Source of the DNA: an uncultured bacterium
GTDB taxonomy: Bacteria; Fermentibacterota; Fermentibacteria; Fermentibacterales; JCC-6
Assembly (NCBI GenBank): GCA_964426545.1
Contig: CAYRQP010000007.1
Span: 36,534-100,533 of the forward strand
Reading direction: 5' to 3'
DNA: 64,000 nucleotides
Within the stretch, counting starts at the first letter, position 1; the number at the start of each line of letters is the position of its first letter. A program made the position numbers and the translations under genes. Under the pieces are notes generated by a model. It was not told the origin of the DNA. It did not search any database and saw only the letters and a list, made by a program, of their open reading frames with translations. This document shows positions 5,541-31,100 of the stretch, one piece after another.

Positions 5541-6191
5541 ATGGGAAGAATAATCAACACTCTTTCGGAGGGGGGGATCCGCGGATTATTCCGAAAGGTC
5601 AGAGATTCGGTCTCCCTGCATGGAGTTATCTATGAATACAGGCTCGATGAGATGGAATCCGAGAAAGATACGGGAGTGCTTCCGGATGGATATACATTCA
5701 AACCGGCCGGAGAGGTGTCTCTGGAAGTCCTGAAGACTTTTTCGACATGTAACAGGGAACCTGGTCAGTTTGAACGCTCTATTCTCACAAATCTGAGTAC
5801 TCCCGACAGGGCAAAGGGGCTGTGTATTATGTTCGAAAACAGGGGAATTGTATCTCTTGGATGGGTATATTTCTTTCCGCCCGGTTCAAGCCGGGGAGAA
5901 AAGTATCCTTCGGGGCAAGATGTGTTTTATCCGATGGATGGATTTGTGGTGAAGGAACATAGAGGGAAAGGTCTGCATAGACAGTGTGTCAGGGAGAGAG
6001 TTCGTATTGCAGGACAAAATGGGAAAAAGACCGGATACAGTATTGTATATATTGACAATGTCCCTGCCCTTAAGGATAATGATAAACTCGGCAGGAGAAT
6101 AGGAAAAGTGTATAGAATAAAGTCAGCGGGGAAAACAGTTAACTTATATATTCCATCCAGATGGTATCTGTATTTCAGGAAACACATATAA
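5541..6191 (+). CDS. GNAT family N-acetyltransferase
   Basis: GNAT motif A-like GFVVKEHRGKGLHRQCVRERV. I chose the ATG at 5541, immediately after the upstream stop, rather than the overlapping track start at 5481. Confidence 0.5.
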   Translation: MGRIINTLSEGGIRGLFRKVRDSVSLHGVIYEYRLDEMESEKDTGVLPDGYTFKPAGEVSLEVLKTFSTCNREPGQFERSILTNLSTPDRAKGLCIMFENRGIVSLGWVYFFPPGSSRGEKYPSGQDVFYPMDGFVVKEHRGKGLHRQCVRERVRIAGQNGKKTGYSIVYIDNVPALKDNDKLGRRIGKVYRIKSAGKTVNLYIPSRWYLYFRKHI

Positions 6192-6206
6192 ATGAGGAGT
6201 GAGTAG

Positions 6207-7199: not shown

Positions 7200-7204
7200 T
7201 AATA

Positions 7205-8431: not shown

Positions 8432-8465
8432 TCGCTAGTGTATCTGCACAAAAATACCTGCGAGA

Positions 8466-9581: not shown

Positions 9582-9823
9582 TGCCAATTGCGAATTATCC
9601 TTTGCTGCAGAGAAAAAATGCATATTGCCGAAAGTGCGGCAATTCTGTTTGATACAGGTACATTACTATATATAGCAGAAATCCGCCACTCCGCTGCAAA
9701 GAGAGATTTGCTATATTTGCAGGGTGACAGTTTTCGTTACAGTGCTGTTCTTCAAAAGTTAAACTACTGTTATATAGATAATTCGACAAAGGCTTTGTAA
9801 TGATAATGAAAGGACAAAGACAG

Positions 9824-10969
9824 ATGCGGAAAATCCGTGTTGGTTTCGTTATATCAACATTGAACAGGGGCGGGGCTGAAGGAAAACTGGTTGCTGTTGC
9901 AAACGGTCTCGACAGGGAAAGGTATGAAGCTGGTGTATATATCCTGAAGACAGGACCTTTGAAAGAACTACTCACAGTTCCGTACCGGGATAATCTGATT
10001 CCCAATAAATACAGCATAGCAGGATTTGCGGAACTCGTCCGGTCTTTCAAGAAGGACAAACTGGATATTGTCTGGCTGGTGGGGACCGGTGATACAGGTT
10101 TTTTTGGAAGGATTGCCGCGAAACTGGCGGGAGTTTCACATGTTATAGTTAGCCTTCATGCGACGGACAGGCCGGGAAAACCCACAATAGACACAACTAA
10201 CCGGTACTTGAATGAGATAAACTGCCTGACGGACAGGTTTGTTGCTGTTGCAGAAACTCACCGGACTCACCTGATACAAACAGAACACATAGATCCTGCT
10301 AAAATAATCTATATTCACAACGGAGTGGACGTTTCAGTATTTCATCCAACGATACCGGGCAAAGACAAAACAACAGAAGACGATTTTGGAGTTCCGGAGA
10401 ACGTTCCGGTTATTGGAATACTGGCACGATTCAAACCCGAAAAAAGACATGATGTCTTTCTAAAGGCGGGTAGAATCCTTCTGCAGACATATCCGGATCT
10501 TAAATTGATGATAGTGGGGGATGGGCTGAATAGGGAATCTGTTGAAAAGATGACAGATGATCTTGGTCTCAGGGACAATGTGATTTTTACAGGCGGACTC
10601 GATGATGTTCTTCCTGCAATTCACAGGATGACAGTATCTGTACTTTGTTCGGATACAGAGGCATTCCCGAACGCCGTGCTTGAATCTATGGCTGCCGGCG
10701 TACCTGTAGTAGCAACTGATGTGGGCTCTGTACGTGAAGCTGTAAAGAACAGGGAAAATGGAATGCTCATACAGAAAGGAAGTCCGGAACATGTGGCTGA
10801 GGCCGTTGCTCTGCTTCTTGAAAGTGATACTCTGCGGAAGTCCGTGATACATGAAGGACTGAAAACGGTATCGGACCGATTCTCACTAAGGCAGATGATT
10901 CGCAGGCGCGAAGAACTATTCGAAGAACTGCTTAACGGAGACAAGAGAAGATTGGATTCCTTTGAATAA
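9824..10969 (+). CDS. glycosyltransferase family 4
   Basis: MRKIRVGFVISTLNRGGAEG N-terminus and C-terminal EAFPNAVLESMAAGVPVVATDVG. Start chosen at the ATG with an aaagga RBS-like sequence. Confidence 0.65.
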   Translation: MRKIRVGFVISTLNRGGAEGKLVAVANGLDRERYEAGVYILKTGPLKELLTVPYRDNLIPNKYSIAGFAELVRSFKKDKLDIVWLVGTGDTGFFGRIAAKLAGVSHVIVSLHATDRPGKPTIDTTNRYLNEINCLTDRFVAVAETHRTHLIQTEHIDPAKIIYIHNGVDVSVFHPTIPGKDKTTEDDFGVPENVPVIGILARFKPEKRHDVFLKAGRILLQTYPDLKLMIVGDGLNRESVEKMTDDLGLRDNVIFTGGLDDVLPAIHRMTVSVLCSDTEAFPNAVLESMAAGVPVVATDVGSVREAVKNRENGMLIQKGSPEHVAEAVALLLESDTLRKSVIHEGLKTVSDRFSLRQMIRRREELFEELLNGDKRRLDSFE

Positions 10970-11918
10970 CATATGGAAAGGAAAACGGGTGCTTATAACA
11001 GGCGGAGCCGGTTTTATCGGGTTCCACCTGTTCCGTAAACTGATTGGAAAGGGTTCTCTTGTCGATATCATCGATAAGAGAATTCCGGCGTGGCCTGTAG
11101 ATGAGTTTGACGCTGATTACACTTTGTATTTCGCCATCGACATAATCGGTGAGGATTTTACAGCATATCTGCGAAAAACCGACTATGACTATATATTCCA
11201 TTTGGCGGGAAGTGCCTCTGTTCAACTCTCGGTGAAAAGACCATTTACTGATTTCGAAACCAATTTGAGGGGTACGCTTAATCTGCTCGAGACACTGCGG
11301 ACGGTAGATTATCTGCCTAAATTGATTTATCTGTCCTCCGCGGCAGTATACGGAAATCCTGTCAGGTCACCGATAAGTGAAGAAGATGCAACCGTGCCAA
11401 TTTCACCATATGGTATTAGTAAACTTGCAGCAGAACGGTATCTTCATGTTTACAGCGAGATTCATGGGCTGCCGGCTGTGTCAGTCAGACCTTTTTCAGT
11501 ATATGGGCCGGGGCAGGGAAAGCAGGTAGTTTTCGACATAATCAGGAAAATCGAAAACAATCCCAAAAAACTGGAGTTATTTGGAACAGGTATGGAAGCC
11601 CGGGATTTCATCTACATTTCCGATATTGTGGATGCTCTTCTAATAGTCGCTGAAAAGAGCAACATGACGGGTGAAGTCTATAATCTTGCATCCGGAAAAT
11701 CGGTAGAGATATCTGAAATAGCGGAAGAAATTTGTCGGATTACAGGTGTTTCTCCCCAAATGGAGTACAAGGGATCTGTACGTCCGGGAGTTCCACTCGT
11801 CTGGGAAGCGAATATTGGTAAACTCAAAGCACTGGGATTCCGGCCGGCTATAGAAATGCATGAAGGACTGAGAAAGACCATAGAGTGGTTCATCGAAACG
11901 AAGACAGACAGAAGATGA
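10962..11918 (+). CDS. NAD-dependent epimerase/dehydratase (SDR, UDP-sugar epimerase-like)
   Basis: Rossmann motif GGAGFIGFHL and catalytic YGISKLAAE (YxxxK). Confidence 0.75.
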   Translation: MNNIWKGKRVLITGGAGFIGFHLFRKLIGKGSLVDIIDKRIPAWPVDEFDADYTLYFAIDIIGEDFTAYLRKTDYDYIFHLAGSASVQLSVKRPFTDFETNLRGTLNLLETLRTVDYLPKLIYLSSAAVYGNPVRSPISEEDATVPISPYGISKLAAERYLHVYSEIHGLPAVSVRPFSVYGPGQGKQVVFDIIRKIENNPKKLELFGTGMEARDFIYISDIVDALLIVAEKSNMTGEVYNLASGKSVEISEIAEEICRITGVSPQMEYKGSVRPGVPLVWEANIGKLKALGFRPAIEMHEGLRKTIEWFIETKTDRR

Positions 11919-13021
11919 AAGTTCTCCTGGTAGGTCCCGTTCATAAATTCGGCGGAGTAACACGTTATGTAAAGGACCTTCTTGCGTCTTCTCCGGACTT
12001 TATCCCTTTCAATACCGGAAGACCCGAGAAGAAGAAAATTCGTGCAGGGACAGGATATGTCGAAGCATTCAACACAGATACTTCAAGGGTAGTTAAAGGC
12101 ATATTCGTGACTCTATGTAATTTTCTGAGATTTCCATTAGTTCTCTTAAATAGCGGTGCCGGAATTGTCCACATATGCGGAGTCAGTTTTTTTCCTTTCT
12201 GGGAAAATACCTATTACATGGCAGTGTCACGTATTTTAGATAAAAAAGTTACGTTGCATTATCTTGGAGCATTCGACCAGTTTTATGAACCGGCAGGCAA
12301 ATTTCACAAATATCTCATTCGTTCTGTTTTGCAGATTCCTGACAGAATTATGCTCCTTTCAGAAAAAGTGAAGAGATTATCAGCGGAATTCATTCCGGAA
12401 GACAGACTGAGTGTATTGCCCAGCTCGGTTGATACCGATAAATTCAATGCTCCTGACAGGCTTTTTCCGGCACCTCCTGCGAAAATCAGAATCTTGTTTG
12501 TAGGCGGACTCGATCCATTTAGAAAAGGTATCTATGATCTGCTTGAATCTGTCAGTATGGTCACAGAGAAATACCCTCATGTGAGATTAGTGCTTACGGG
12601 TGGTGGTAGTTTCGAAGAAATTGAAAAGAAGTGGGAAAAAATGGGTTTGGATGGATGTATAGAGTTCATCGGCTGGGTCGCTGATGAAAAACTGCCCGAA
12701 CTCTACGCGTCCTGTGATGTTCTGGCACTTCCTTCGTATAATGAGGGCCTTCCATATGTGATTATCGAAGCACTTTCATCCGGATTACCAATGATAGGCA
12801 GTAATGTGGGCGGAATACCGGAAGTCATAAGTGACGGAGAGAACGGTTACATAATAACACCCGGTGACGTAGAAATGCTGACTGAGAGACTGCTTGAACT
12901 TCTTAAAGACGCTGATATCAGAAAAAGAATGAGCGCGAACAATAGGAAAAGGGCAGTTCGATTTTATTCTATTGACCATGTAATGAAAGAATTGCAGAGA
13001 AATTTCTCAGAGATAGTATAA
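11915..13021 (+). CDS. glycosyltransferase family 4
   Basis: MKVLLVGPVHKFGGVTRY and C-terminal EGLPYVIIEALSSGLPMIGSNVGGIPEV. ATGA overlap with the upstream stop. Confidence 0.65.
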   Translation: MKVLLVGPVHKFGGVTRYVKDLLASSPDFIPFNTGRPEKKKIRAGTGYVEAFNTDTSRVVKGIFVTLCNFLRFPLVLLNSGAGIVHICGVSFFPFWENTYYMAVSRILDKKVTLHYLGAFDQFYEPAGKFHKYLIRSVLQIPDRIMLLSEKVKRLSAEFIPEDRLSVLPSSVDTDKFNAPDRLFPAPPAKIRILFVGGLDPFRKGIYDLLESVSMVTEKYPHVRLVLTGGGSFEEIEKKWEKMGLDGCIEFIGWVADEKLPELYASCDVLALPSYNEGLPYVIIEALSSGLPMIGSNVGGIPEVISDGENGYIITPGDVEMLTERLLELLKDADIRKRMSANNRKRAVRFYSIDHVMKELQRNFSEIV

Positions 13022-13060
13022 ACTGCAGACTTTCAGTTTTCTGAAAGTGGGGAGATGAAT

Positions 13061-14467
13061 ATGAGTAGCCCGGACAGATTCTACTCAGTTTACAAACATC
13101 TGCCGGTTTTTCTTCAAAATGCGATAGTGAGTATCAAAAGCGGTAGACGCTGGAAGCATGAAAACAGCAGACAGTTTCAATCTATTGTGGAAGAGCTGCT
13201 CAGAATTCAGTATGCATCGAGCGAAGAAATTCTCGAATACAGAAAAAACAAACTGGGTGCAGTTCTTAAAGCTGCGGCAAAAACAGAATATTACAGAAGA
13301 GAACTTCCCGAGGATGAGATAATAGAGAAAGAACCATTTGCTGTATTAGCGGATATTCCTGTGCTGGAACGTGAAGAGGTCAGAAACAACTTCAGAAAGT
13401 TCATCAACCCGCTGTACACAGACAAAATGATGAAACATGGAACAAGCGGGACAACAGGTACTCCTCTGCAGGTTATGTGGACAGAAGAGAGCATGGATAT
13501 GGAAAGAGCACTCATCTGGAGACAGAGAAGAGTCACAGGACTTTCTTTTGGAGAAGCCTGGAGGGGTATGCTCGGCGGTCATAAGATAGTACCGCTTAGT
13601 GTAACCGCTGCTCCTTTCTGGAGAACAAACAGGAAAGCAAAACAGGTATATTTTTCTACATTCCACATAAGCCCGGACGCAGCGGGGGACTACCGCGAAG
13701 GACTCGATAAATATGATATCGAATATCTCGAAGGTTATCCATCTGTTTTATATGCTCTGGCTCTTGCTCTTGATTCCGCAGATATCAGGTATAGACTCAA
13801 GGGAATCTATTATGGAGCCGAACCGCTCAGGGAATTCCAGAGAGAATTAATTGAAAAAGTATTTGAAACCTATGTCTGGGATTATTACGGATTGACTGAA
13901 AGGGTAGCCTCGGCAAGTGAATATGAATGCCGGAACGGACTTCATGAGAACTGGGAAAACTGCTTTCCGGAAGTGGTGGATAAAAAAGGTTGCCTTCTCG
14001 ATGACGGGCAATATGGAGAACTCGCAGGGACTTCTTTTTCAAATTTGGGGTTCCCGCTTCTCAGGTATAGAACAGGGGATATGACGCGGATCATTCCGGG
14101 AAAATGTACATGCCGGCGGGATTCGAGGAGAATAGCACCTATCGATACCAAACGGGAAGACCTTCTTATTATGCCGGACGGAAGTTATCTGTCAGCTTCC
14201 AACATGACCTATCCGTTTAAGGAAGTAGGACATATAAAGTTATCACAGATATATCAGGGACAGAGGAATCTCATAGAAGTCAGGGTCGTACCTGACAGTG
14301 ATTACAGAGAAGAGGATGGAATTGCTCTTGCCGGGAAACTTAAAAAGCTGCTTCCCGCTGAAGTAAGCGTAAAGATAGAACTTGTCGATGATATACCTAA
14401 AACAGCCTCAGGCAAATATGCGTTCTGTATATGCGCGATTAAAGAACTTCCCCCAGAAGAAGATTAG
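13061..14467 (+). CDS. CapK-like adenylate-forming enzyme (phenylacetate-CoA ligase / coenzyme F390 synthetase family)
   Basis: AMP-binding P-loop-like TSGTTGTP and the overall PaaK-like layout. Start chosen at the second ATG, which has a GGGGAG RBS. Confidence 0.6.
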   Translation: MSSPDRFYSVYKHLPVFLQNAIVSIKSGRRWKHENSRQFQSIVEELLRIQYASSEEILEYRKNKLGAVLKAAAKTEYYRRELPEDEIIEKEPFAVLADIPVLEREEVRNNFRKFINPLYTDKMMKHGTSGTTGTPLQVMWTEESMDMERALIWRQRRVTGLSFGEAWRGMLGGHKIVPLSVTAAPFWRTNRKAKQVYFSTFHISPDAAGDYREGLDKYDIEYLEGYPSVLYALALALDSADIRYRLKGIYYGAEPLREFQRELIEKVFETYVWDYYGLTERVASASEYECRNGLHENWENCFPEVVDKKGCLLDDGQYGELAGTSFSNLGFPLLRYRTGDMTRIIPGKCTCRRDSRRIAPIDTKREDLLIMPDGSYLSASNMTYPFKEVGHIKLSQIYQGQRNLIEVRVVPDSDYREEDGIALAGKLKKLLPAEVSVKIELVDDIPKTASGKYAFCICAIKELPPEED

Positions 14468-15464
14468 AAATAAAATTCAGAGTGCTTTCGGATTTACAAG
14501 AATCCCGCCTTTTCGTCCTCAGACCCGCAGAAAGCGTTTCTTCAACAGAGCCGGCATCCCGCATGAGAACAAGCCTTCCGTCTTTCTCGAGTTTTGAGTC
14601 AACCCGCCCCTGTTTCCCGCAGAAGAAGCTGATAGAGGGAATTCCCATAATAGCGGCTTCTCGGGTCATTGTACCGCCCCCGCCTATTACAAGGTCACAT
14701 AAGTCGATGAGCGTTGGTCCGGAGTATACTTTGGATGGGACAATGACATCAGCCTTTGAACCTCTTTCTATCAGACTGTTCTGTTGTTCGTTTCTCGGAA
14801 TCCAGATTATTTGAACATCGTCTCTTGCCAACAGCACCTTCAGAATTTCCCCGAGGACTGTATCTGCTTCCGGAAAATGATAATGAGCTGTTGCGGCAGG
14901 CGGTCTCAGCAGAATTTTCTTCTTATCTGCCTCCAGCCCCAATTCAGCAGCGACAGAAATATCTGTTTCGATGTTTCCGATGTAAAGATTTTCCTTATAA
15001 CCCGGATATTTAGACACTTTGGATAATGATATTCCGGCATCTTTGCATCTATTGTCGTCGATTGCGTCGGGAAGCAGAATCTTAGTGCAGAATCGATTGA
15101 AAAGATAAGGATTCACCCATTCATAATCGTACATTGTTATCGACGGAATGCCGAGTATCCGTGAAGCGATGGGGAGAGCCCGTGAACCGTGTCCAAAGGA
15201 GAGAACTACTTCACTACCGCGCATGGCAGCGGCAAGTTTTACGGCGCGCACTAATGTCCCGGAGACTTTTCCCAACATACCCGCGCCGTATACCCCGCCA
15301 ATCTTAATGTAGTTCAACCCGAACATATCCAGGAGTTCACAGGTGGAAGAACGGTCCCTGGCTGTAAAGATGACATCATGTCCGCGTTTCCTTATCTCTT
15401 CGGCAATTGGCTTCATTACAAGGATATGGGGAGCATTATCCGCATCAAACCAGATTTTCATCAT
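14439..15464 (-). CDS. DUF354-like GT-B fold protein (putative glycosyltransferase/epimerase-like)
   Basis: N-terminus MKIWFDADNAPHILVMKPIAEEIRKRGHDV is characteristic of DUF354. C-terminal GGGGTMTREAAIMGIPSI. Confidence 0.5.
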   Translation of the reverse strand: MMKIWFDADNAPHILVMKPIAEEIRKRGHDVIFTARDRSSTCELLDMFGLNYIKIGGVYGAGMLGKVSGTLVRAVKLAAAMRGSEVVLSFGHGSRALPIASRILGIPSITMYDYEWVNPYLFNRFCTKILLPDAIDDNRCKDAGISLSKVSKYPGYKENLYIGNIETDISVAAELGLEADKKKILLRPPAATAHYHFPEADTVLGEILKVLLARDDVQIIWIPRNEQQNSLIERGSKADVIVPSKVYSGPTLIDLCDLVIGGGGTMTREAAIMGIPSISFFCGKQGRVDSKLEKDGRLVLMRDAGSVEETLSAGLRTKRRDSCKSESTLNFISNLLLGEVL

Positions 15465-16683
15465 TACCCTTCAAATAAAGACAAAGAGCCCTGAACATCC
15501 ATGCCTGCGACCATCGCATATGAACTACCGGATTCTTGTGCCATCTATGCCTTTGAAAAATAAAGCCACTCTTTACTTCATCCCACAGGAAATCTATACC
15601 CTTATTCAGAATTCTTTTCGCCGTTTCTCTACCATCCGGATAATAGTCTGTGAGTTTCAGAAAGGTGATTGCTCCCTGCGCAAAAGAATGAGGATCCAGG
15701 GGATATTTTCTTGTTGCATAGTACTTTGCCGTTCCGTCAGGTTCGAAGAGAACATCCCGATAATAACTCAAGCCCGATGTAATACAGTCATCCCATTTGG
15801 AAGTGCCAAGGAGCTTTGAAATGTCGGCGAGTGATTCGAGAATAAATCCTGTATGCAGATTATCGATCCATTGCCAGTGTTCGTCTTCGCCGTAAAACCA
15901 GCTTCCGTCATCATTCTGTCTGGCAATGACATACTCTACTGCCTTCTGCGCAAGTGCAGTCCACTCTTTCCTGTTTTCTTCAGAATATTGTGCAGCATTG
16001 GCAAGTATTTTCGCCCCGAAGAGGGAAGCGTTGAAGACCCTTGTTCTGTCATCCGGTGAGTAACTGAAGCAGATTCCGGTATCATCTTCGTAACGTTTTA
16101 AAGAACGGGTAACGAATTGCGCCGAAGCCCCTGCAATAATTGAAACCGCAGGATTGGCTGAGTCTGATAATGAATCAAGAACAAAATTAGTGCAGACAAC
16201 AGTAGGGAACCATGCCGGCTGCAGAAATGCTCTGCTTTGCCAGGGAAAACTATAGCCCCAGCCCAGAGATAGGACACTGATGTTTTCTGCTATTCCTGCT
16301 ACAATACCGCTGATCGGCTTTCTGTTCTTTACAAAGGCGGCAGAACCATCCGTTTTAGAAGCCATCGAGAGAAGAGAATCTCCTAATACTTCTTTCAGTT
16401 CTCCTGACTTGTCTATTTCAGGGAAATCACTGATACCGGAGAGGAAGAGAGCAAGCCCTTTCGGGTTGGTTATGTCCCGTATGCGAAGGAATGGTCTTAA
16501 ATTCAGGGGACATCGTTTAACAAGCTGGATTAAAGCAAGGCGAAATAAGCGAGAGCGTCTTATGAAGGGAGAGAGCAGTTTACTGTTCAAGCCGTCGTAT
16601 GGATCACTTCCACGGAAATTATCGTGAATTGCGCTTTTTAGAATAACCCCGGCTATTGTCCGGAAACGCTTGCTGCTGTTCAC
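15445..16683 (-). CDS. hypothetical protein, possibly an (alpha/alpha)6 toroid-like domain (heparinase II/III- or C5-epimerase-like)
   Basis: QNDDGSWFYGEDEHWQWIDNLHTGFILESL resembles alpha/alpha-toroid carbohydrate-enzyme helices. No firm family assignment. Confidence 0.35.
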   Translation of the reverse strand: MNSSKRFRTIAGVILKSAIHDNFRGSDPYDGLNSKLLSPFIRRSRLFRLALIQLVKRCPLNLRPFLRIRDITNPKGLALFLSGISDFPEIDKSGELKEVLGDSLLSMASKTDGSAAFVKNRKPISGIVAGIAENISVLSLGWGYSFPWQSRAFLQPAWFPTVVCTNFVLDSLSDSANPAVSIIAGASAQFVTRSLKRYEDDTGICFSYSPDDRTRVFNASLFGAKILANAAQYSEENRKEWTALAQKAVEYVIARQNDDGSWFYGEDEHWQWIDNLHTGFILESLADISKLLGTSKWDDCITSGLSYYRDVLFEPDGTAKYYATRKYPLDPHSFAQGAITFLKLTDYYPDGRETAKRILNKGIDFLWDEVKSGFIFQRHRWHKNPVVHMRWSQAWMFRALCLYLKGNDENLV

Positions 16684-20915: not shown

Positions 20916-21509
20916 ATGTTTCATACAGTGTTGCTCATAGCCTTTTCTCTTTCACTGCCGCAGACAGGAGTTCTTTCGGGAGATGAAATTGTCTTCAATG
21001 AATTCATGCCTGACCCTGTTGCCAGCACAACCGAATCTGACGGAGAGTGGATTGAACTGTATAACCGTTCGGACAGCTATGTGAACCTTGGCGGATGGGA
21101 AATAGAGAACGAGGACGGTGAACGGATAGTCCTTCAAACATACTTACTGCCCCCCGGCGGGTATTATGTCATAGGAGCCTGCAGCGATATACAAAAAAAC
21201 GGCGGCTATGAACCCGATTGTATCTGGTCGAATTTCAGCATAGATAACAGCGGAGAGTTTTCCCTTTACGACAACTCAAAGACTTTAGTTGATGAAGTAA
21301 CCTACACTGAAGGTGAATGGTCTATTACTTCAGGATGTTCCTGTGAACGGATCAATCCGGGCTGGGTATCTTCACTTCCTTCAACATGGGACTTCTGTAC
21401 ATCCGTTTACGGCAATGGAGACCTTGGGTCCCCCGGAGAGATAAACAGCGTATACGAGAACTCATTTGCTCAGAACAGCTGGGCATTCATCAAGGCTTTT
21501 GTGAACTAG
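20916..21509 (+). CDS. secreted lamin-tail-domain (LTD) protein
   Basis: Signal peptide MFHTVLLIAFSLSL. LTD signature EFMPDP...EWIELYN...GGWEIENEDGE...FSLYD..LVDEV. Start chosen at the ATG with a GGAGG RBS. Confidence 0.55.
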   Translation: MFHTVLLIAFSLSLPQTGVLSGDEIVFNEFMPDPVASTTESDGEWIELYNRSDSYVNLGGWEIENEDGERIVLQTYLLPPGGYYVIGACSDIQKNGGYEPDCIWSNFSIDNSGEFSLYDNSKTLVDEVTYTEGEWSITSGCSCERINPGWVSSLPSTWDFCTSVYGNGDLGSPGEINSVYENSFAQNSWAFIKAFVN

Positions 21510-21524
21510 AAAGGTTGCTTTCCC

Positions 21525-22706
21525 ATGAAAACATCTCTCATTCTGCTGCTTTCTCTGTTTGCATTATTGTCTGCAACCGAGCCGCTGGTAGTATTCTTCA
21601 TAGATCCCACATCGACCCCGCAGGGATTTTCCGGTGATGCAATTCTGGTGTGTACTCCAGCCGGACGAAATTATCTCATTGACGGGGGCATGCTGTGGAA
21701 CGACTTCAGCGATCAAGGCTGGGACTGCGGCACCGAGACAATCCTACCTCTACTTGACAGTCTGGATATCACATATCTCGACGGTATTGTTGGAACCCAT
21801 CCGCATGCCGACCATATAGGTGGATTGATAGCGGTACTCAATAATATGCCTGTAACGACAGCTTATGATTCCGAATGGCCCTATGGCGGCACATGGACCT
21901 ATGAAGAATTTCTCGATGCAATCTACAGAAATGGATCCAACTCTGTTACGCCGCGAAGAGGAGATATCCTCAACTGGGGGTCGGAATTAACTGTTGAAGT
22001 TATCCATCCGGTTGATCCGCTTGCACAGCCGAACGAAAATAACGCTTCAATTACGATTAGATTGACCTATGGAGAAATTTCTTTTCTTTTCACCGGTGAC
22101 CTTGAAACAAGCGGCGGCGAAGATATCATTCTCGCTGCTCTTGCAAGCGGAGATATCGAGAATATTTCTGCAGATGTTCTTAAAGTCGGGCACCACGGTT
22201 CTTATACTTCAACATGCAACAGTTGGCTTGCTGCAGTAGATCCATCCATCGCTGCGATTTGTGTGGGACGGGGAAATGAGTATGGACACCCCCATGGAGA
22301 AGTCATAAACAGACTCAATATGTGGGATATAGACATTTACAGGACAGACGAAGACGGAACATTCTATATTTCCACAGACGGAGAAGATCTCTATTATGAT
22401 TCGATGCCGCCCGAGACCGGCGGCACAGAGCCGGATCCCCCAGCCGGATTTTCAGTATATCCCAGTCCCGCCACTGACGATGTTACATTTGCATGGGATG
22501 CAACCGATGGGGTAACAGCAGCTATTGTCATCTATAATTTGAATGGTGAGAAGGTCAAAGAAATAACGAATATATCATCAGGCATCTGGACATGGACAGA
22601 TATGCGTCTGGACAACAACAGTATTCTGTCTTCCGGACTCTATGCAGCAGTTTTCACGACGAGCGGGGGTGAAACATGGGTAGAATACTTTGCAGTCTCA
22701 CGCTGA
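21525..22706 (+). CDS. secreted MBL-fold metallohydrolase (ComEC/Rec2-type beta-lactamase domain) with T9SS-like C-terminal sorting domain
   Basis: Signal peptide, HPHADHIGG (HxHxDH) and GHHGS motifs. C-terminal YPSP...IYNLNGEKV...GLYAAV...FAVSR resembles a Por_Secre_tail/FlgD-Ig-like domain. Confidence 0.6.
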   Translation: MKTSLILLLSLFALLSATEPLVVFFIDPTSTPQGFSGDAILVCTPAGRNYLIDGGMLWNDFSDQGWDCGTETILPLLDSLDITYLDGIVGTHPHADHIGGLIAVLNNMPVTTAYDSEWPYGGTWTYEEFLDAIYRNGSNSVTPRRGDILNWGSELTVEVIHPVDPLAQPNENNASITIRLTYGEISFLFTGDLETSGGEDIILAALASGDIENISADVLKVGHHGSYTSTCNSWLAAVDPSIAAICVGRGNEYGHPHGEVINRLNMWDIDIYRTDEDGTFYISTDGEDLYYDSMPPETGGTEPDPPAGFSVYPSPATDDVTFAWDATDGVTAAIVIYNLNGEKVKEITNISSGIWTWTDMRLDNNSILSSGLYAAVFTTSGGETWVEYFAVSR

Positions 22707-23560
22707 TACCGATGTTTCTATCGCTTCCCGCCTATGCCGGCACCGGAGCAGCTGGTCTTCTGATGCTCTGTTCTCCGGGCTTTCCCGAACAGATGATGCT
22801 CGGTCCGGCAGGCATGTCTCTTGCAGCGGGACCAACTGCATTGACTTCGAACCCGGCTCTTCTGATATCCGGTTTTTCAGCAGCGGGTGGCAGATGGAAT
22901 CTCTCTACAACATCAGTTTCCTTTTCAGGTGCCTTCTCTTCAGGTAACCTGATATGTGCCGGCGGGCTGAGATATCTGGGTAAAACCGGATTGATTAGAA
23001 GGAATGCAAGCGGAGAAGCAATAGGAGAATATTCATTTTCTTCGGGTTTCGCAGGCGGTGGAGTTGCATTTCCCATTACTGATTATCTATCCGGCGGAAT
23101 TTCAGGCGGAGCAGTATGGGAATCTATTGCCGAAGAAGGCGGGACCGGCTTTGCAGCCAATGCAGGCCTGGCAATGAAATTATTTGATAATATTGATTTT
23201 GGACTGACTGTTAACGGATTTGGGCAGGCTCCTTCATGGGAAGGCATTCACAATGACATGCCGGTTGAAATCTCAGGCGGAATAGGCATTCCATTCGCAC
23301 AGGTGTGTTACGGTTTTGCAGGGGTAAGACAGGGATTCAGCACAGCAGATCTGTACGGCACCGGATTGATGTTTACGGTGTCAGGTGTATCCTGTTCGGG
23401 CGGGTATCAATACTCTACTCAGGACGGTCAATCGGGCATATTCGGTGGATTGAACTATTCGACGAAATCAGTCGGAGAAGAATATTCCATATCCATAGGT
23501 TTTGCTCAGAGTGATGAGTTCTCCTGGCCGGTTTTGGCCGGGCTGACGGTCAGCTTCTAA
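22676..23560 (+). CDS. outer-membrane beta-barrel protein, PorP/SprF-like (putative T9SS cargo partner)
   Basis: Gly/aromatic-rich, alternating amphipathic strands, C-terminal Phe (LTVSF). SLPAYAGTG resembles the NPAYAG motif of the PorP/SprF family. Lies directly downstream of a T9SS-CTD cargo gene. Confidence 0.4.
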   Translation: MGRILCSLTLIPMFLSLPAYAGTGAAGLLMLCSPGFPEQMMLGPAGMSLAAGPTALTSNPALLISGFSAAGGRWNLSTTSVSFSGAFSSGNLICAGGLRYLGKTGLIRRNASGEAIGEYSFSSGFAGGGVAFPITDYLSGGISGGAVWESIAEEGGTGFAANAGLAMKLFDNIDFGLTVNGFGQAPSWEGIHNDMPVEISGGIGIPFAQVCYGFAGVRQGFSTADLYGTGLMFTVSGVSCSGGYQYSTQDGQSGIFGGLNYSTKSVGEEYSISIGFAQSDEFSWPVLAGLTVSF

Positions 23561-23664
23561 CAAGGGGGACGGAGGAGCATGCCAACTCCTCAACAAGGGG
23601 GACGGAGGAGCATGCCAACTCCTCAACAAGGGGGACGGAGGAGCATGCCAACTCCTCCGTCCCC
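23561..23664. repeat. three tandem 33-nt direct repeats (CAAGGGGGACGGAGGAGCATGCCAACTCCTCAA), the last extended into a full GGGGACGGAGGAG/CTCCTCCGTCCCC hairpin
   Basis: Read directly from the sequence between convergent genes ending at 23560 (+) and 23666 (-). Confidence 0.8.
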
Positions 23665-23665: not shown

Positions 23666-24142
23666 TTAGAACTTTGTTGCTGAGGAATAATCATCCATAT
23701 CATACTTGATGAGTATATCGGGCATGGGTAGTTTATCCAACTTCACCCCGGAATTTTCGAAAAATTCTTCGGCAAGAGAGTGCCCTGTATAGTCTGAAAA
23801 AATAACCACGCGGACTATTCCTGCCGCAAGCAGCGCTTTTGAACAGGTGGTACACGGCATATTCGTGATGTAGGCGGTAGAACCGTCAATAGAGACACCG
23901 TGCCGCGCTGCCTGGGCTATGGCATTCATTTCCGCATGATTCGTGCGTACGCAGTGTTCCTCGACTATCAGGCATCCGATGTCTTCACAGTGTTCGAGTC
24001 CGGGAAGTGAGCCGTTATAACCGGTTGAAAGTACATATTTGTCCTTGACCAGAACACAGCCGCAGTGCATTCTGGGGCAGGTTGCCCGTTCAGATGCAAG
24101 CATGGCAAGTTTTAGAAAGTACTTATCCCACGGAGGTCTCAA
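23666..24142 (-). CDS. dCMP deaminase (ComEB-like cytidine/deoxycytidylate deaminase)
   Basis: Zinc-binding HAEMNAI and PCTTC motifs; 158 aa. Confidence 0.75.
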   Translation of the reverse strand: MRPPWDKYFLKLAMLASERATCPRMHCGCVLVKDKYVLSTGYNGSLPGLEHCEDIGCLIVEEHCVRTNHAEMNAIAQAARHGVSIDGSTAYITNMPCTTCSKALLAAGIVRVVIFSDYTGHSLAEEFFENSGVKLDKLPMPDILIKYDMDDYSSATKF

Positions 24143-24185: not shown

Positions 24186-25703
24186 CTAATTGCCAAAGGA
24201 ATAGTCGACCTGAAGTCCTGCGCCATATCTTGAATTCCCGACGGTTTCCTCCCAGCCGCTGCCGATGACTTTCAGGTTTTCGAAATTCTTCCAGTATCCC
24301 CGTGCTGTCAGTTTGAAGCCGTTTGGAATTGACAGTGATACGGCTCCCTGAAGCATAAAACCGGAATCCCATAGAGAAACGGATCCAAATTCCCCCGGAA
24401 AAACAATCTCGGCAGCATAGATCCGTGAATTATATCCCCGGGTAGAAAAAGCAATAGCCCCTGCCCACAAACGCCATTGGGAGTTCAGGTCATACCGCAG
24501 CCTGAATTCTCCGCCAGTACCGGTTTCGGAAGAATCTGATTCGGAATCCTGCCAGCCGGTAGCCTGGACTTTTGCAGAAAGATGTATTTTCCTTCCGGGA
24601 TCCCATGTTGTTTTAAGCCATAAGCGATAGGAATTATCATCTTCACTTCCGGAATTTCTTCCCCCTAATGTGAAAAGCAGCCTTCCTTCAAGTCTCTGCT
24701 GTATTTCCCCTGAAAATTTCAGCAGATACTCATCATCGATGAATTGAGTCCTTACTCCTGCAGAGAAAGTAGTTCTTTCGAAGGGGCGGAAACGAAAACC
24801 GTATCCCGCCCCAAAGTCACAGGAAGTGCCTATTGGGAAAGAAGCCCGTGTCTCAGGAAAACCCTCAGGAAGACGGTAGATTGTGATGTTATGTTTGAAC
24901 AGGTCGAGATTTTGTGTAAGAGCAGCCCATCCGGCAAAAGACAGTACAGTATCTACGAAAAACTGCCCAATCCCTGCTTCTCCGGATATGAGGAAGTCCT
25001 CGAAATTCAACCTCCAGTCCACTCCGCCGCGATATACTAAAGATGTGGAATCATCTTCGAAGGCTCTTCTAATTACAGCTGCGGTGATTCCGGCTTCAGG
25101 GATGGAAAGACGGAAAACTCCCAGTAATTCAGTAATACTTACCCGATCCGCGATTTCGGAAGGGGTTCGGTGATACCCTTCGCCGGAGCCGTCTATTTTG
25201 GAATAAGCGCTCAGTACAGAGAGATTATATGTACCCACAGATAACTGTGTCCCTATTCCTGTCATGGGTTCGCCACGGATTCCCCAAGAAGATGTAGCCA
25301 GCCGGATGTAATCTCTTATACCCGGCGGTTTGCATAAGTTCAGATTATCGACACCTGTCCAGGAACCGGGATATGAAAAGATAACCCCTGACCCGAGTTT
25401 TGACTTAAGCCATCCTGCAGAGACTGATGTAAAAGGAGACGACGAAGAGTTCCATCTGCATCCGCCTGCAATGATATCCACCCAGTCTTCACCCCTGTTC
25501 TTGTCCATGAGAAGGGACAAGTCGAGACCACCGGCAGATATCCTTATACGGTTATATAAAGAATATTCATCCCCTGTATATTCTCCGCCAAGTGTACCGC
25601 GGCAATCCGGAAACCGCCGCCAAATTCTCGTTCGGATATCGCCCTCGATGCTGTAGGCGGCGGATACGGTAAGCATGAGAAGCAGGATTGAGAAATATTT
25701 CAC
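24186..25703 (-). CDS. outer-membrane beta-barrel protein of unknown function
   Basis: Signal peptide MKYFSILLLMLTVSAAYS. About 500 aa of alternating aromatic/Gly-rich strand-like segments. GTG start overlaps the upstream stop (GTGA). Confidence 0.45.
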   Translation of the reverse strand: MKYFSILLLMLTVSAAYSIEGDIRTRIWRRFPDCRGTLGGEYTGDEYSLYNRIRISAGGLDLSLLMDKNRGEDWVDIIAGGCRWNSSSSPFTSVSAGWLKSKLGSGVIFSYPGSWTGVDNLNLCKPPGIRDYIRLATSSWGIRGEPMTGIGTQLSVGTYNLSVLSAYSKIDGSGEGYHRTPSEIADRVSITELLGVFRLSIPEAGITAAVIRRAFEDDSTSLVYRGGVDWRLNFEDFLISGEAGIGQFFVDTVLSFAGWAALTQNLDLFKHNITIYRLPEGFPETRASFPIGTSCDFGAGYGFRFRPFERTTFSAGVRTQFIDDEYLLKFSGEIQQRLEGRLLFTLGGRNSGSEDDNSYRLWLKTTWDPGRKIHLSAKVQATGWQDSESDSSETGTGGEFRLRYDLNSQWRLWAGAIAFSTRGYNSRIYAAEIVFPGEFGSVSLWDSGFMLQGAVSLSIPNGFKLTARGYWKNFENLKVIGSGWEETVGNSRYGAGLQVDYSFGN

Positions 25704-26779
25704 TCAGTTACCAGATATTCCTGCAGGATTTCAAGCATGGCAGGACCTATGCCTGGACAATCATCCAGTGTGGCAACAGACCCGACAGGACCGTTCTCCT
25801 GCACCCATGCATGAATAGTACCGGCTTTCGACGGCCCGATTCCGGGAATGAACTCGAGTTCTTCTGCAGTTGCAGTGTTTATGTTAAGGGGGAAGGAAAC
25901 TGTCAGTTCCTCTTCCTGTTCGTCTTCCAGAATAAGCGGAGCAGGATCAGATGCACACCCGCCCCATGCAAGCGAAGCTACATGAGTGCCGGGAAGGGAC
26001 GCATGGTTACCGTATCCCCATGACAGGTCGAAGTCGGAGAGAGAGATAACAACAGCAAATGAAAGTCTGACCGGATTTGTGACGGCTCCTGTCTGAAGGG
26101 TAAGTTCTTCCACGGGAGACGCGGAAACATGGAAGGAATATTCAGACTCAAGCCCTTCATTCCTGCGGAAGCCGGCACTGAGAGTAACTCCATCAACGGG
26201 AACGATACCTGCTGCAAGGTCGAATCCGCGAGGCTGGGCAGGGTCGCCGGACACTCCGATTTCAGTACGCAGAACACCCCTTACCGCACCTGCAAAGTGA
26301 ATACCCTGAATTGGGATACAACTGAAGCCTACATCCAGTCCGGCTCCGCTTCCACTGCCGTATCCGCTGATAGCAAGCCGCCTGTAAGAACAGCCGATTC
26401 CGACAGCAATTCCATCTGTAATCTTCCGTGCAGCAGAAGCGAGAATAGTGCCCTCTGTGTACGAATGGTCTCCTGATAGAGAGAAAGCCCCGCCCACGAA
26501 CCAACTGTCGAACATCATTCCGCCGGAAAGCGAAGTTTTATCGAGTTCGCTTAGTCCATATGGTCTTGCACCTGATATTGCTATCCCCGAACTTTCGAGA
26601 AAAGAAGTAGCGGCAGGATTTTCCAGCATGACATGCGGGGAGCGTGGGAACAGTGAAGATGCCGGCCCGCAAAGAAGCCACGGAGATTCGGGCATTGGCT
26701 CGAAAGCCCCTTCTGAAATGGAAACACAGAAGAAGCAGGTAATCAGGTAGAACATCAAACGATTGTCTAAAATTGTCAT
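25700..26779 (-). CDS. ComEA-like helix-hairpin-helix DNA-binding protein with a large N-terminal beta-rich (barrel-like) domain
   Basis: C-terminal NINTATAEELEFIPGIGPSKAGTIHAWVQENGP...LDDCPGIGPAMLEILQEYL is a ComEA-type tandem HhH. The N-terminal ~270 aa is Gly/aromatic-rich with amphipathic strands and a signal peptide. Confidence 0.55.
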   Translation of the reverse strand: MTILDNRLMFYLITCFFCVSISEGAFEPMPESPWLLCGPASSLFPRSPHVMLENPAATSFLESSGIAISGARPYGLSELDKTSLSGGMMFDSWFVGGAFSLSGDHSYTEGTILASAARKITDGIAVGIGCSYRRLAISGYGSGSGAGLDVGFSCIPIQGIHFAGAVRGVLRTEIGVSGDPAQPRGFDLAAGIVPVDGVTLSAGFRRNEGLESEYSFHVSASPVEELTLQTGAVTNPVRLSFAVVISLSDFDLSWGYGNHASLPGTHVASLAWGGCASDPAPLILEDEQEEELTVSFPLNINTATAEELEFIPGIGPSKAGTIHAWVQENGPVGSVATLDDCPGIGPAMLEILQEYLVTE

Positions 26780-26937: not shown

Positions 26938-28419
26938 TTGGAGCTGATAATGGACCATGCATGTCCCGGATATTTCCGGCGGCAGGATGGCAGTGTACTA
27001 ACAGACATTGCATTGGAAGTTCTGCGGAAACGCTTTCCGCATTCTAATAATCCTGTACGAGACTGGCTTCCCGGCAGACCTGACTGGGAAGAGGGTCTGC
27101 CCGATATCGATATCCTTAAGCAGGAACTTACAGACCTCCGCAGCCGCGGGGGGAAAATAGTCATATATGGTCATGATGATATGGACGGCGTGACAGGGCT
27201 TTTCGTCGGAGTTACAATTCTCCGGGCTGAAGGTTATACCGTCATTCCAATAATCCCCCGCAGTTCTACAGACGATTACGGTATCCGTCCTGCAAGAATG
27301 GAAGGTATTCTGAATAGCGGAGACCTTCTTCTTACCGTGGACTACGGTTGCTCCGCCGTCCACGGAGTGAAGTGGGCTATTGAAAAGGGCGCGCGGGTGG
27401 TAATAACAGACCATCACTTACTTAATCCTCCGCTTCCGCCTGCACACGGATTAATCAACCCGCAATTCTTCGGATTGCCCGGGATAGTATTAGCCGGATG
27501 CGGCGTTCTATATGCATCACTTGTTTCTATATTTCCGCACTGGGAAAACAACGCTAACCTCCTTGCCGCCGTTGCTTTGGGAACAGTTGCCGACAGAGTC
27601 CCGCTCTCGGGATGGAATCGTTATCTGTTGTCCGAATTCAGTAGAGTCAACATTGAAAAGTTAAGCACCGGTTTAAGGATGTTCATCGATGAATGGCCCG
27701 CCCGTACATCTGCATGGACGGGACTTATGGTTCGTCAAAGGATAATATCTGTTATCGGCAAGGGTGAAAAATCAGAGATCGACAGATTGCTCGAGTTTAT
27801 GATGACCAATGATAAAGAAAGTGTTAGAAAGCAGTGGATCAATATGAGGGATACAAGCAGGAAAAGGTCCCGGGCACTCTCGAAGTACTTCACTCTGGCA
27901 ATGCAGAGCAGGGATGAGCAGGCAGCAGCTTACGGCATGACGCTTATCTATATGGATTCACTTCCGAGCGGAATGGGAGGGGCAATTGCCGGGCGCATAA
28001 CCAAGATTGACAAGAGAAGCGTAATAGTCGTTTCTCCGCGCGAAGATGGGACTCTGGGCGGAGAAGCAAGATCTGCCGGGGATTGGAATGTAGCAGGATT
28101 TCTTACGGGTATGAAGAATGTATTTGCCAGTGCCGGCGGTCATAAAATGGCGGCGGGATTCAGCTGCAGAGATAAATCATGGGAAGAACTGAGAGAAATC
28201 ATGCTGTCCAGAATGACTGAATATCCGGCAGAACCCTTACCGCAACCCCACATTGACCTTGAAGTAACCGAACTCCCCGATCCCAATGAATTCAAGTGCC
28301 TTGCACCCTTTGGTCCCGGTTTTCTTCCGCCTGCTGTAAAAAAAGACAACCTTCGTTATCTTCTGCAGGTTGGCGAAAATAACATTAACTGGAGAATTTC
28401 AGAAGAAGGCGGCGATTAA
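26938..28419 (+). CDS. DHH/DHHA1 phosphoesterase, RecJ-like core (no C-terminal OB domain)
   Basis: Motif I IYGHDDMDGVTG, motif III VVITDHH and DHHA1 GGHKMAAGF. Confidence 0.6.
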   Translation: MELIMDHACPGYFRRQDGSVLTDIALEVLRKRFPHSNNPVRDWLPGRPDWEEGLPDIDILKQELTDLRSRGGKIVIYGHDDMDGVTGLFVGVTILRAEGYTVIPIIPRSSTDDYGIRPARMEGILNSGDLLLTVDYGCSAVHGVKWAIEKGARVVITDHHLLNPPLPPAHGLINPQFFGLPGIVLAGCGVLYASLVSIFPHWENNANLLAAVALGTVADRVPLSGWNRYLLSEFSRVNIEKLSTGLRMFIDEWPARTSAWTGLMVRQRIISVIGKGEKSEIDRLLEFMMTNDKESVRKQWINMRDTSRKRSRALSKYFTLAMQSRDEQAAAYGMTLIYMDSLPSGMGGAIAGRITKIDKRSVIVVSPREDGTLGGEARSAGDWNVAGFLTGMKNVFASAGGHKMAAGFSCRDKSWEELREIMLSRMTEYPAEPLPQPHIDLEVTELPDPNEFKCLAPFGPGFLPPAVKKDNLRYLLQVGENNINWRISEEGGD

Positions 28420-29519: not shown

Positions 29520-31100
29520 CTATTCGATAAGGTCACTGTCGTCGCGGGGTTCGATTTTCCAGTTGTCGTAGCTATACATGCACACACCTATGATTTCGCT
29601 GAAAGTATCACCGACAGTAGGCTCATATGTATAGTCTCCCAGATCATCGATTCTAATATCACCCGTACCGTCATCGACAGCCCATTCACCGTATCCAAGG
29701 TCATCTTCAGAAACTTCTACATCAGACACCGATACGAGAACGGATTCCCACTGTTCTTCAGCGACACTGCCCGTAGAGAGAGCTTCAGCAGCCGGAAGGG
29801 TGTGACCGGTCGAGTGAACATCGACAGCAGACGGATAAGAAAGTTCTGTGAAACTGTAGTATTCCTGGATTTCTCCTGTAATCGTGATACTGTCTCCTCT
29901 TGCAAGCCCTGCAACATCGGAACCGAAGAGAGTCAAGCCGGCCCACGCACCGCCGCCTTCGTCCATTATAACGGCATAGGCATACTGGCTGGAATAATAT
30001 TCATCGCCGCCGACAACTACGATTCCTGTCACACTGACAATCTGCCCTTCATAAGGCGAGGCTGACTGCTGTCCCTGTACTTCGTAGCAGGTGAGTGCAT
30101 CTCCGCCACTGCCGCCGGAAGAAACATCCAGGTCCGCATTGTCTCTCGGCTCGAGTTTCCATTCATTGTATGCATACCAGACTACGCCTGTTGCAGAAAA
30201 TACAGTATCTCCGAGCGCTGCCTGCCATGTAAATGTACCAAGGTCATCACCCATGCAGTCGCCGGTTCCGTCATCCATCAGCCACTGTCCGTATTCCTGT
30301 ACTTCGGTTACAATGGCATCGGTTACTGTAACAAGAACGGATTCGTATGCTTCAGGGTCTGCTGATTGTGAAATGTCAGCGGTTGTAACCGCAGTCGAAG
30401 GAGGTATAGGGTTTCCGGAAGAGACCACTTCTACAGAAGTAATGTATTTAACTTCTGTCATCTCCCAGAACTCTTCGACTGTTCCGGAGACGATGACACT
30501 GTCACCGCGTGCAAGATATGCAATGCTGTCACCGAAAAGAGTAAGTCCCGCCCATGCACCGCCTGAAGGGTCGGCGATTACAGCAACAGGATCACCATAG
30601 AAGCAATCGCCGGCAACTGTAACTATACCGGTAACTTCGACTTCCTGACCCGCATAAGGGGAAGTAGATGCCTGTCCCTGTATTTCATAGCAGGTGAGGT
30701 ATTCTCCACCGCCACTGCCGCCGGAATCGGGAGTTACAGATTCTTCATTGCTCCATGCATGAAGATCCTCTGTATCCGTTGTACGGAGAGCGTAGTAATA
30801 CTTGGTGCCCCATTCAAGATCCGGGTCGGTGAATGTAGTCTCATTAATATCATAAACAGGTCCCTTTACGAGGTCAGACGATGCAGATACTCCCTGAGAC
30901 GTATCTCTGTAAAGGTTATATTCCGCAAAGTCGTCATCAGGGCAAACTGTCCAGGATCCGGATGCTGTCGTATTGGTCACACTTACGCTTAGTGTAGAAG
31001 CAGTAGGGTTGCTGCTGGGTCCTGTCTCATCATCGCCGCAGGACATCATCAGCCCCATAGCAACGATTAAGACAACAAGAAACCATTTGTATTTAGTCAT
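29520..31100 (-). CDS. surface lipoprotein with FN3-like domain and two tandem duplicated OB-fold-like domains
   Basis: Lipobox MMSCGDD and an FN3-like N-terminal region. Two ~170-aa repeats (SGGSGGGEYLTCYEIQGQASTSPYAGQEVEVTGIVTV... / SGGSGGDALTCYEVQGQQSASPYEGQIVSVTGIVVV...) have an OB-fold (tRNA_anti-like) VxVxGxV...D.sG pattern. Confidence 0.5.
   Translation of the reverse strand: MTKYKWFLVVLIVAMGLMMSCGDDETGPSSNPTASTLSVSVTNTTASGSWTVCPDDDFAEYNLYRDTSQGVSASSDLVKGPVYDINETTFTDPDLEWGTKYYYALRTTDTEDLHAWSNEESVTPDSGGSGGGEYLTCYEIQGQASTSPYAGQEVEVTGIVTVAGDCFYGDPVAVIADPSGGAWAGLTLFGDSIAYLARGDSVIVSGTVEEFWEMTEVKYITSVEVVSSGNPIPPSTAVTTADISQSADPEAYESVLVTVTDAIVTEVQEYGQWLMDDGTGDCMGDDLGTFTWQAALGDTVFSATGVVWYAYNEWKLEPRDNADLDVSSGGSGGDALTCYEVQGQQSASPYEGQIVSVTGIVVVGGDEYYSSQYAYAVIMDEGGGAWAGLTLFGSDVAGLARGDSITITGEIQEYYSFTELSYPSAVDVHSTGHTLPAAEALSTGSVAEEQWESVLVSVSDVEVSEDDLGYGEWAVDDGTGDIRIDDLGDYTYEPTVGDTFSEIIGVCMYSYDNWKIEPRDDSDLIE

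Follow-up and report, generated by a model that had tools for sequence, protein, structure and literature searches.

An exported ComEC-type metallo-β-lactamase protein encoded with a PorV/PorQ-family barrel in a candidate extracellular-DNA locus of an uncultured Fermentibacterota bacterium

The DNA studied, a 64,000-nt stretch of contig CAYRQP010000007.1 (GCA_964426545.1) from an uncultured Fermentibacterota bacterium, hereafter the window, includes a three-gene operon for a small lamin-tail domain (LTD) protein, a stand-alone metallo-β-lactamase (MBL) protein of the ComEC type, and an outer-membrane barrel of the PorV/PorQ family. The MBL protein ends in a domain that resembles the type-A C-terminal domain (CTD) of type IX secretion system (T9SS) cargo. 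The operon may thus encode a DNase that is anchored in the envelope and has a PorV-like carrier to itself, as part of an island for the capture or utilisation of extracellular DNA, a reading to which we give about an even chance.

The coordinates of the LTD, MBL and barrel genes (Table 1), the spacing and overlap between them and their shared orientation, all given in a preliminary description of this DNA, were exact when checked against the sequence. A Sec-type hydrophobic signal peptide can be read directly on each of the three proteins. Relatives of the MBL protein number in the thousands and include full-length orthologues with 50-82% identity, and those relatives that carry a name all belong to Candidatus Aegiribacteria or Fermentibacteria (Fermentibacterota, formerly Hyd24-12, of the FCB group). 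The barrel protein has 18 orthologues, and the long N-terminal start is conserved among them, which supports the overlapping start codon of the barrel gene. The three are genuine genes and not chance open reading frames (ORFs), and they form one operon.

The identification of the second protein as a secreted MBL of the ComEC type was confirmed. The protein matched the Pfam Lactamase_B profile with 58.3 bits and positions 451-663 of TIGR00361 (ComEC/Rec2) in a local alignment scoring 126 bits, and it found the ComEC MBL domains in the PDB with high significance (9ic4, E 8e-40; 30bt, E 5e-39). Its signal peptide is MKTSLILLLSLFALLSA, with cleavage, as read from the sequence, before TE. The expected THPHADH and VGHHGS motifs are present and the metal ligands are intact, residues H92, D96, H97, N172, D192, H223 and H255 being invariant in 29 orthologues. 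Position 94 alternates between H and D among these orthologues, with a canonical HxHxDH motif II in 21 of the 29, and Asn172 is invariant within an NNxS sequence. In ComEC-type MBL domains, motif II is HxDxDH and an Asn replaces the His of motif III (PMC8579336), and both Asn172 and the H/D alternation agree with a domain of this type. The MBL domain of Moorella ComEC is a Mn2+-dependent nuclease with endo- and exonuclease activity (PMC8579336). Homology and the intact ligands thus identify the protein as a predicted ComEC-type metal-dependent phosphodiesterase/nuclease, from which we infer that it may act as a DNase.

The MBL protein is not itself a ComEC. It comprises only 393 aa, starts with a signal peptide and has no Competence channel; profile searches gave no match to the Competence or DUF4131 domains, and the TIGR00361 score is below the cut-off of 190 bits. 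A second exported protein with a ComEC-type MBL domain, ~60% identical in that domain, is found in Fermentibacterota as a lipoprotein with two preceding fn3-like domains. It is encoded elsewhere, with neither a barrel gene nor an LTD gene next to it.

The last 88 residues of the MBL protein had been described as a T9SS-like CTD, and they do look like a domain of type A. The segment aligns with CTDs that pass the model cut-offs, and PF18962 matches 11 of the 29 orthologues at E<1e-3 (best 1.2e-9) and is annotated for many orthologues in a precomputed table; the protein's own scores fall just short of the cut-offs, as detailed below. Other CTDs with scores above the cut-offs were found on proteins encoded at 56072-57589 in the window (PF18962, 27.6 bits; TIGR04183, 32.8 bits) and at 4560-5546 in locus L010, and the former indicates that this organism makes use of the CTD signal. 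The gene at 56072-57589 (+ strand) encodes a 505-aa protein that also includes a Peptidase_C25-like region (28.1 bits, cut-off 23). It was considered as a candidate PorU sortase and rejected, as it matched no PorU model and no PDB sequence.

The barrel protein had been assigned to the PorP/SprF type with a PAYAG motif, and neither assignment held. PF11751 and TIGR03519 gave no match at E<=0.1 in either profile library, and the PAYAG sequence (residues 19-23) lies in the signal-peptide cleavage region and varies among orthologues. The terminal Phe noted earlier is present. The protein matched a PorQ model weakly (E 6e-6) and did not match the Pfam PorV profile (PF19572), and its own profile found no match among PDB sequences. 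However, the exhaustive profile search recovered 881 relatives, and the 40 nearest that are not orthologues all matched the PorV/PorQ model NF033709, as compared with 15 for Toluene_X and three for PorP. Alignment-to-alignment comparison with hhalign gave a probability of 99.9% (E 6e-32). Together with this family homology, the protein has a 14-strand FadL/PorV fold and an N-terminal NPA(G/L)L segment. Hence, it is a divergent 14-strand outer-membrane barrel of the PorV/PorQ family (FadL fold).

In the scan of the genome collection, full-length MBL orthologues bearing the CTD were found only in Fermentibacterota. The LTD-MBL-barrel arrangement is intact in all 10 distinct orthologous loci that are long enough to judge, and in these 10 loci the genes for a ComEA-barrel fusion, an orphan 505-aa barrel (OM505) and a RecJ-like exonuclease, all described below, lie within a few kb of it. 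The arrangement and the linkage persist in locus L004 despite a different upstream flank. In the Fermentibacter clade, the block with the ComEA-barrel gene is inverted and the dCMP deaminase gene is absent at that position, but the linkage is kept.

The nearest barrel that is not an orthologue, P0147, is encoded on contig L088 (GCA_012511615.1, JAAZFS010000010.1), where nucleases, barrels and helix-hairpin-helix (HhH) proteins are again encoded together (Table 1), and the same functional theme appears to have been assembled independently there. In L088 and in locus L091, three unrelated CTD-bearing proteins, namely a PLD protein, a 329-aa protein and a 959-aa protein, are each followed by a gene for a PorV-like barrel within 0-11 nt, and in L091 that gene overlaps the gene for the 959-aa protein. 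Contigs L089, L090 and L092, which encode further near relatives of the barrel, were either too short or gave no information. No PorV-like barrel gene adjoins the genes for other CTD proteins of Fermentibacterota loci, and the barrel therefore seems to be a private partner of particular cargos. The pairing appears to be specific to the CTD and not to the MBL domain, because the lipoprotein paralogue of the MBL protein, which has no CTD, has no barrel, whereas the unrelated proteins with a CTD in L088 and L091 do. The earlier idea of a cargo-specific outer-membrane partner survives and gains strength from these recurring pairs, with the correction that the partner is not PorP/SprF; the precedent for a PorP/SprF partner concerns type-B CTDs, and the CTD here is of type A. 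Single-ORF fusions join the same domains in other lineages: a signal peptide, the MBL domain and a ComEA-type HhH domain in a Bacteroidota and a Bacilli metagenome-assembled genome (MAG), and an LTD, the MBL domain and a transmembrane anchor in a Nitrososphaera MAG.

The first protein of the operon consists of a signal peptide and a single lamin-tail (Ig-like) domain, as had been proposed; residues 23-131 matched PF00932 with 66.7 bits, above the gathering score of 34.3, and lamin A/C tail structures showed weak similarity. In all orthologous loci, the LTD gene directly precedes the MBL gene. Across the phylum, 10 orthologues are ~50% identical over most of the protein and near-identical in the final 20 residues, NSVYENSFAQNSWAFIKAFVN, while the synonymous sites in this region vary freely; hence, the constraint on the tail acts on the peptide. 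The tail resembles a C-terminal tag, [ST]WGxIKxxF, that ends other exported proteins of the Fermentibacterota lineage. Among 8185 ORFs, the relaxed motif [ST]W[AGS]x[IVL]Kxx[FV] occurred 20 times, 19 of these at 0-1 residues from the stop codon, and ~0.02 such C-terminal matches would be expected by chance. The carriers are signal-peptide proteins of Fermentibacterota and fall into three unrelated families, which are the LTD protein, a DUF7901/choice-of-anchor-R-like family and a protein of ~270 aa whose gene immediately precedes the LTD gene in three loci. The tail looks like a C-terminal tag for sorting or docking, of a kind not yet described, and it may explain how an LTD protein without a CTD is placed in the envelope.

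As described earlier, the three genes converge on a comEA-like operon on the minus strand, with genes for a deaminase, a 505-aa barrel and an HhH protein. The HhH protein, of 359 aa, has a ComEA-type domain at its C-terminus, which matched HHH_3 with 50.2 bits (cut-off 27) and TIGR01259 at E 1.4e-12, and reached 42 bits with TIGR00426, below the cut-off of 53.1. It differs from ComEA in its N-terminal part, which is a PorV-like barrel (PorV-like profile E 1.9e-11; hhalign 95.8%). A direct paralogy of this part and the 294-aa barrel was not supported, as BLASTP gave just E 0.038 and the kinship is visible via profiles only. An apparent fusion of the ComEA-barrel and OM505 in loci L012 and L025 proved to be an artefact of stop-to-stop ORF calling in another frame, the genes being separate. 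OM505 is confined to Fermentibacterota. Its structure model (pLDDT 91) is a large barrel of ~24-26 strands without a separate plug domain, and its likeness to ushers, TonB-dependent receptors and MtrB is no more than generic. Homology to the 695-aa HhH-barrel protein of L088 was rejected (hhalign 0.2%; jackhmmer, no match). The gene for the RecJ-like exonuclease is divergent from the ComEA-barrel gene, and the two remain adjacent even where the block is inverted.

Table 1. Features of the operon, the convergent operon and related loci. Positions are those of the window unless a locus is named.
Feature	Position	Strand	Details
LTD gene	20916-21509	+	197 aa; ATG at 20916 with GGAGG ahead
Invariant C-terminal tail of LTD protein	21447-21506	+	20 aa, near-identical in 10 orthologues; tag site
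MBL gene	21525-22706	+	393 aa; 15 nt after LTD gene
MBL domain	21627-22394 (aa 35-290)	+	Stand-alone ComEC-type phosphodiesterase/nuclease homologue
Type-A T9SS-like CTD of MBL protein	22440-22703 (aa 306-393)	+	Last 88 residues
Barrel gene	22676-23560	+	294 aa; 31-nt overlap with MBL gene; C-terminus ...LTVSF
Three exact 33-nt tandem repeats	23559-23657		Between the convergent operons; end in palindrome with 13-bp stem (to 23664)
dCMP deaminase (ComEB-like)	23666-24142	-	PF00383 87.6 bits; TIGR02571 155.7 bits, below cut-off 219
OM505 orphan barrel	24186-25703	-	505 aa; ~24-26 strands, no separate plug
PorV-like barrel-ComEA HhH fusion	25700-26779	-	359 aa
Barrel part of the fusion	25961-26668 (aa 38-273)	-	N-terminal ~240 residues
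ComEA-type HhH of the fusion	25712-25906 (aa 292-356)	-	C-terminal
RecJ-like DHH/DHHA1 exonuclease	26938-28419	+	Cytoplasmic; TIGR00644 183 bits, below cut-off
Lipoprotein with fn3-like domain and two OB-fold repeats	29520-31100	-	Lipobox ..LMMSC
Further tag sites	57644-58309; 58435-59133	-	
Tag sites in other loci	L004 6463-7266; L010 8232-9170; L011 1581-2402		
Lipoprotein MBL paralogue	L007 8001-9584		Proteins P0075-P0116; fn3-fn3-MBL, no CTD
L088 gene order, first part	L088 1-10052		PLD nuclease with CTD; PorV-like barrel; ComEC-type MBL; LTD with weak CTD-like C-terminus
L088 gene order, remainder			PorV-like barrel with 2 HhH; 2 HhH with big barrel; FadL-like barrel; CTD protein; PorV-like barrel
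Single-ORF fusions	L027 3393-4583; L062 9857-10999; L077 1319-2794		MBL-HhH or LTD-MBL types

Two genes beyond the RecJ-like gene lies a gene for a lipoprotein whose OB folds are like those of the N-terminal region of ExeM/NucH; it lacks a nuclease domain. It matched NF033681 at E 9e-19, over positions 42-122 only, and PF12869 with 29.2 bits, and a 529-aa gene is present at the corresponding position in locus L005. A role as a surface DNA binder is possible for this protein, and its membership of the island is tentative. The sequence between the convergent operons ends in a palindrome, GGGGACGGAGGAG...CTCCTCCGTCCCC, which is intergenic and downstream of gene ends at 23559-23664, 57597-57638 and 58387-58428. 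At 23559-23657, its left arm lies within the three 33-nt tandem copies, and eight arm matches were counted as compared with 0.05 expected. The element at 23559-23664 is probably a bidirectional terminator or a REP-like element; a terminator hairpin formed by the palindrome would have no T-run. A scan of promoter and terminator consensus sequences gave matches at chance level. Elsewhere in the window, positions 1452-16683 are occupied by a surface-polysaccharide biosynthesis cluster with genes for several GT4 glycosyltransferases, epimerases, a GNAT protein and a DUF354 protein, further glycosyltransferase genes lie downstream at 54032-55237, and two polytopic membrane paralogues of 516 and 522 aa, with no family match, are encoded in tandem at 59323-62467.

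In the mechanism that we propose, the MBL protein would cross the inner membrane via Sec, as its signal peptide suggests, and would reach the cell surface by means of its type-A T9SS-like CTD. The co-translated PorV/PorQ-family barrel would be its private carrier or anchor, as the fold, the family and the recurrent gene pairing suggest, and could act like PorV, the carrier of type-A cargo, whose extracellular loops bind CTDs (PMC10994853), or in the way that PorQ and PorV hold PorZ and PorU. The ComEC-type metal-dependent phosphodiesterase/nuclease would then cut DNA, with the LTD protein as a possible accessory subunit bearing an invariant C-terminal docking or sorting tail. The operon is one half of a conserved island; in the other half, a ComEA DNA-binding domain is tethered to a second PorV-like barrel, beside the large plugless barrel. 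The island would most likely capture extracellular DNA at the outer membrane, cut it and pass it inward, the DNA being directed to nucleotide salvage, in which the dCMP deaminase may act, and/or to transformation. That the nuclease operon cooperates with the ComEA-barrel and OM505 in the capture and import of DNA is a further inferred step.

Several points weigh against an envelope-anchored DNase with a PorV-like carrier. The MBL domain of ComEC normally acts on the periplasmic side, so that location at the surface is not the default case. The CTD of the MBL protein scored 25.6 bits with PF18962 and 21.8 with TIGR04183, in each case just under the cut-off (27 and 23, respectively), and profile searches found no T9SS CTD on the LTD protein. 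No T9SS core gene was detected with the profile libraries among the ~48 genes of the window scanned, and no report of a T9SS in Fermentibacterota or Hyd24-12 was found in the literature. The match of the barrel to NF033709 reached only 26.8 bits (E 3.7e-6) against a cut-off of 90, and UPF0164 also matched 21 of the 40 nearest distant relatives of the barrel. UPF0164 is a family from spirochaetes, which are not known to have a T9SS. Finally, a gene order shared within one small phylum can reflect inheritance and not selection.

A serious alternative, though on present evidence an unlikely one, is a split ComEC, in which a periplasmic MBL protein supplies the nuclease domain in trans and degrades the non-transforming strand, while the CTD docks to the periplasmic face of the barrel. 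Bacteroidetes ComEC proteins mostly consist of DUF4131 and Competence domains and lack Lactamase_B (PMC6299819), and the strand-degrading nuclease of Riemerella transformation is still to be named. The genes for ComEA-type HhH, ComEB-like and RecJ-like proteins are neighbours here. Where inspected, the Fermentibacterota matches among the 80 top-ranking loci from the genome scan were either of the form with a CTD or an MBL-only form of ~530 aa; no ComEC with an MBL domain was identified among them, although the ComEC of Fermentibacterota itself was not looked at. In contrast, the CTD matches an outer-membrane export signal found on unrelated proteins of the same genomes, and PorV binds CTDs by its extracellular loops and not by its periplasmic face.

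More doubtful still is that the operon encodes a soluble secreted DNase that digests environmental DNA as food, with the barrel as a FadL-type channel for the products and not as a T9SS part. The adjoining dCMP deaminase gene would suit this role, for which the Bacteroides ddb locus, with DNA used as a nutrient, is a precedent. However, as given above, all 40 of the nearest relatives of the barrel matched the PorV/PorQ model and only 15 of them Toluene_X, and genes for such barrels track CTD cargo of unrelated enzymology (the PLD, 959-aa and 329-aa proteins), which fits a carrier and not a substrate-specific channel. Least probable, and very unlikely in our judgement, is a system not concerned with DNA, in which the MBL protein hydrolyses another phosphodiester, either surface phosphorylcholine as CbpE/Pce does or cyclic nucleotides, and the linkage to comEA is merely inherited order: the weak matches to CbpE (E 0.0066) and to Avs1a-type, 6A-MBL and Apyc1-type MBL proteins and the polysaccharide-synthesis cluster upstream would be in keeping with it, but the ComEC matches exceed these by tens of orders of magnitude, MBL domains of this type occur in other lineages in fusion with, or next to, HhH and LTD DNA-binding modules, and one of them is found independently on L088 together with a PLD nuclease and four HhH units.

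The envelope-anchored DNase with a PorV-like carrier can be compared with several known systems. With the MBL domain of ComEC/Rec2 from Moorella and Bacillus (9ic4 and 30bt), the MBL protein shares fold and family (E ~1e-40), the motif III Asn, the bridging Asp and the GHHGS and GHPH motifs. It differs in having no Competence channel and no DUF4131/OB domain, in its own signal peptide and T9SS-type CTD, and in the HxHxDH form of motif II in most orthologues in place of HxDxDH. The CTD β-sandwich and the 14-strand FadL-fold barrel are shared with T9SS type-A cargo and PorV, as in SprA-PorV of F. johnsoniae (6h3i), PorQ-PorZ and PorV-PorU, and the nuclease NucA is a known type-A cargo, like the nuclease cargo proposed here. 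However, canonical PorV is common to many cargos, whereas the gene for the barrel here, a divergent paralogue, immediately follows and overlaps a single cargo gene, which implies a private carrier or anchor; the lineage is also outside Bacteroidota and its T9SS is putative. SprB/SprF pairs follow the same gene logic, with a cargo followed by its own outer-membrane partner, but there a type-B CTD is combined with PorP/SprF and here a type-A CTD with a barrel of another family (PorP matched only three of 40 relatives).

An LTD is likewise tied to an exported nuclease in Vibrio Xds and Shewanella ExeM/NucH, and in the haloarchaeal LTD-MBL protein 'ComA' (Hlac_1867) an LTD and a ComEC-type MBL form a single polypeptide. 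The nuclease of Xds and ExeM/NucH is of the EEP type, while here it is of the MBL type and the LTD forms a small protein of its own, with an invariant C-terminal tail. The LTD of Xds is dispensable for activity and localisation. The ddbABCDEF genes of Bacteroidales and the uptake genes of Riemerella anatipestifer are also from the FCB group and likewise join nucleases that are exported with an outer-membrane barrel and a partner that binds DNA, independently of type IV pili; in Bacteroides, ddb turns DNA into deaminated nucleobases. Riemerella transformation also requires an HhH protein, RA0C_RS02645. Profile searches of the cluster genes found no TonB-dependent DdbC-like barrel, DUF5689 lid or CarboxypepD_reg domain, and the cluster has instead PorV-like barrels, HhH and LTD proteins, an orphan plugless barrel and a ComEC-type MBL.

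The association of LTDs with nucleases, a nuclease as T9SS cargo (NucA) and barrel-based loci for DNA uptake or utilisation in Bacteroidota are thus already known. No description was found in the literature of a stand-alone ComEC-type MBL with a type-A CTD, of a dedicated PorV-like partner for it or of a PorV-like barrel-ComEA fusion, and a search for publications linking ComEA and PorV returned nothing relevant. A bolder reading, which we regard as speculative and rather unlikely, is that Fermentibacterota and at least one further lineage (contig L088) possess an undescribed, pilus-independent machine for DNA intake at the outer membrane. In this machine, nucleases (ComEC-type MBL and PLD) would be brought to private PorV-like carriers by type-A CTDs, ComEA domains would be tethered to PorV-like barrels, the plugless barrel of ~24-26 strands would be the DNA conduit, and accessory proteins such as the LTD protein would be sorted by the tag [ST]W[AG]xIKxxF.

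The way in which DNA gets through the outer membrane in the FCB group without type IV pili is just beginning to be understood, from the Riemerella genes and the Bacteroides ddb locus, and the locus described here offers a second, differently built and directly testable solution. It points to the ComEC nuclease domain living independently as an exported enzyme, and to PorV-family barrels that serve as private partners of single cargos or have a ComEA DNA-binding domain attached. Where ComEC lacks an MBL domain, the missing strand-degrading or DNA-cutting nuclease may come from a gene in trans, and the tail of the LTD protein may represent a C-terminal sorting tag of a new kind, in a phylum that is uncultured and abundant in anaerobic digesters.

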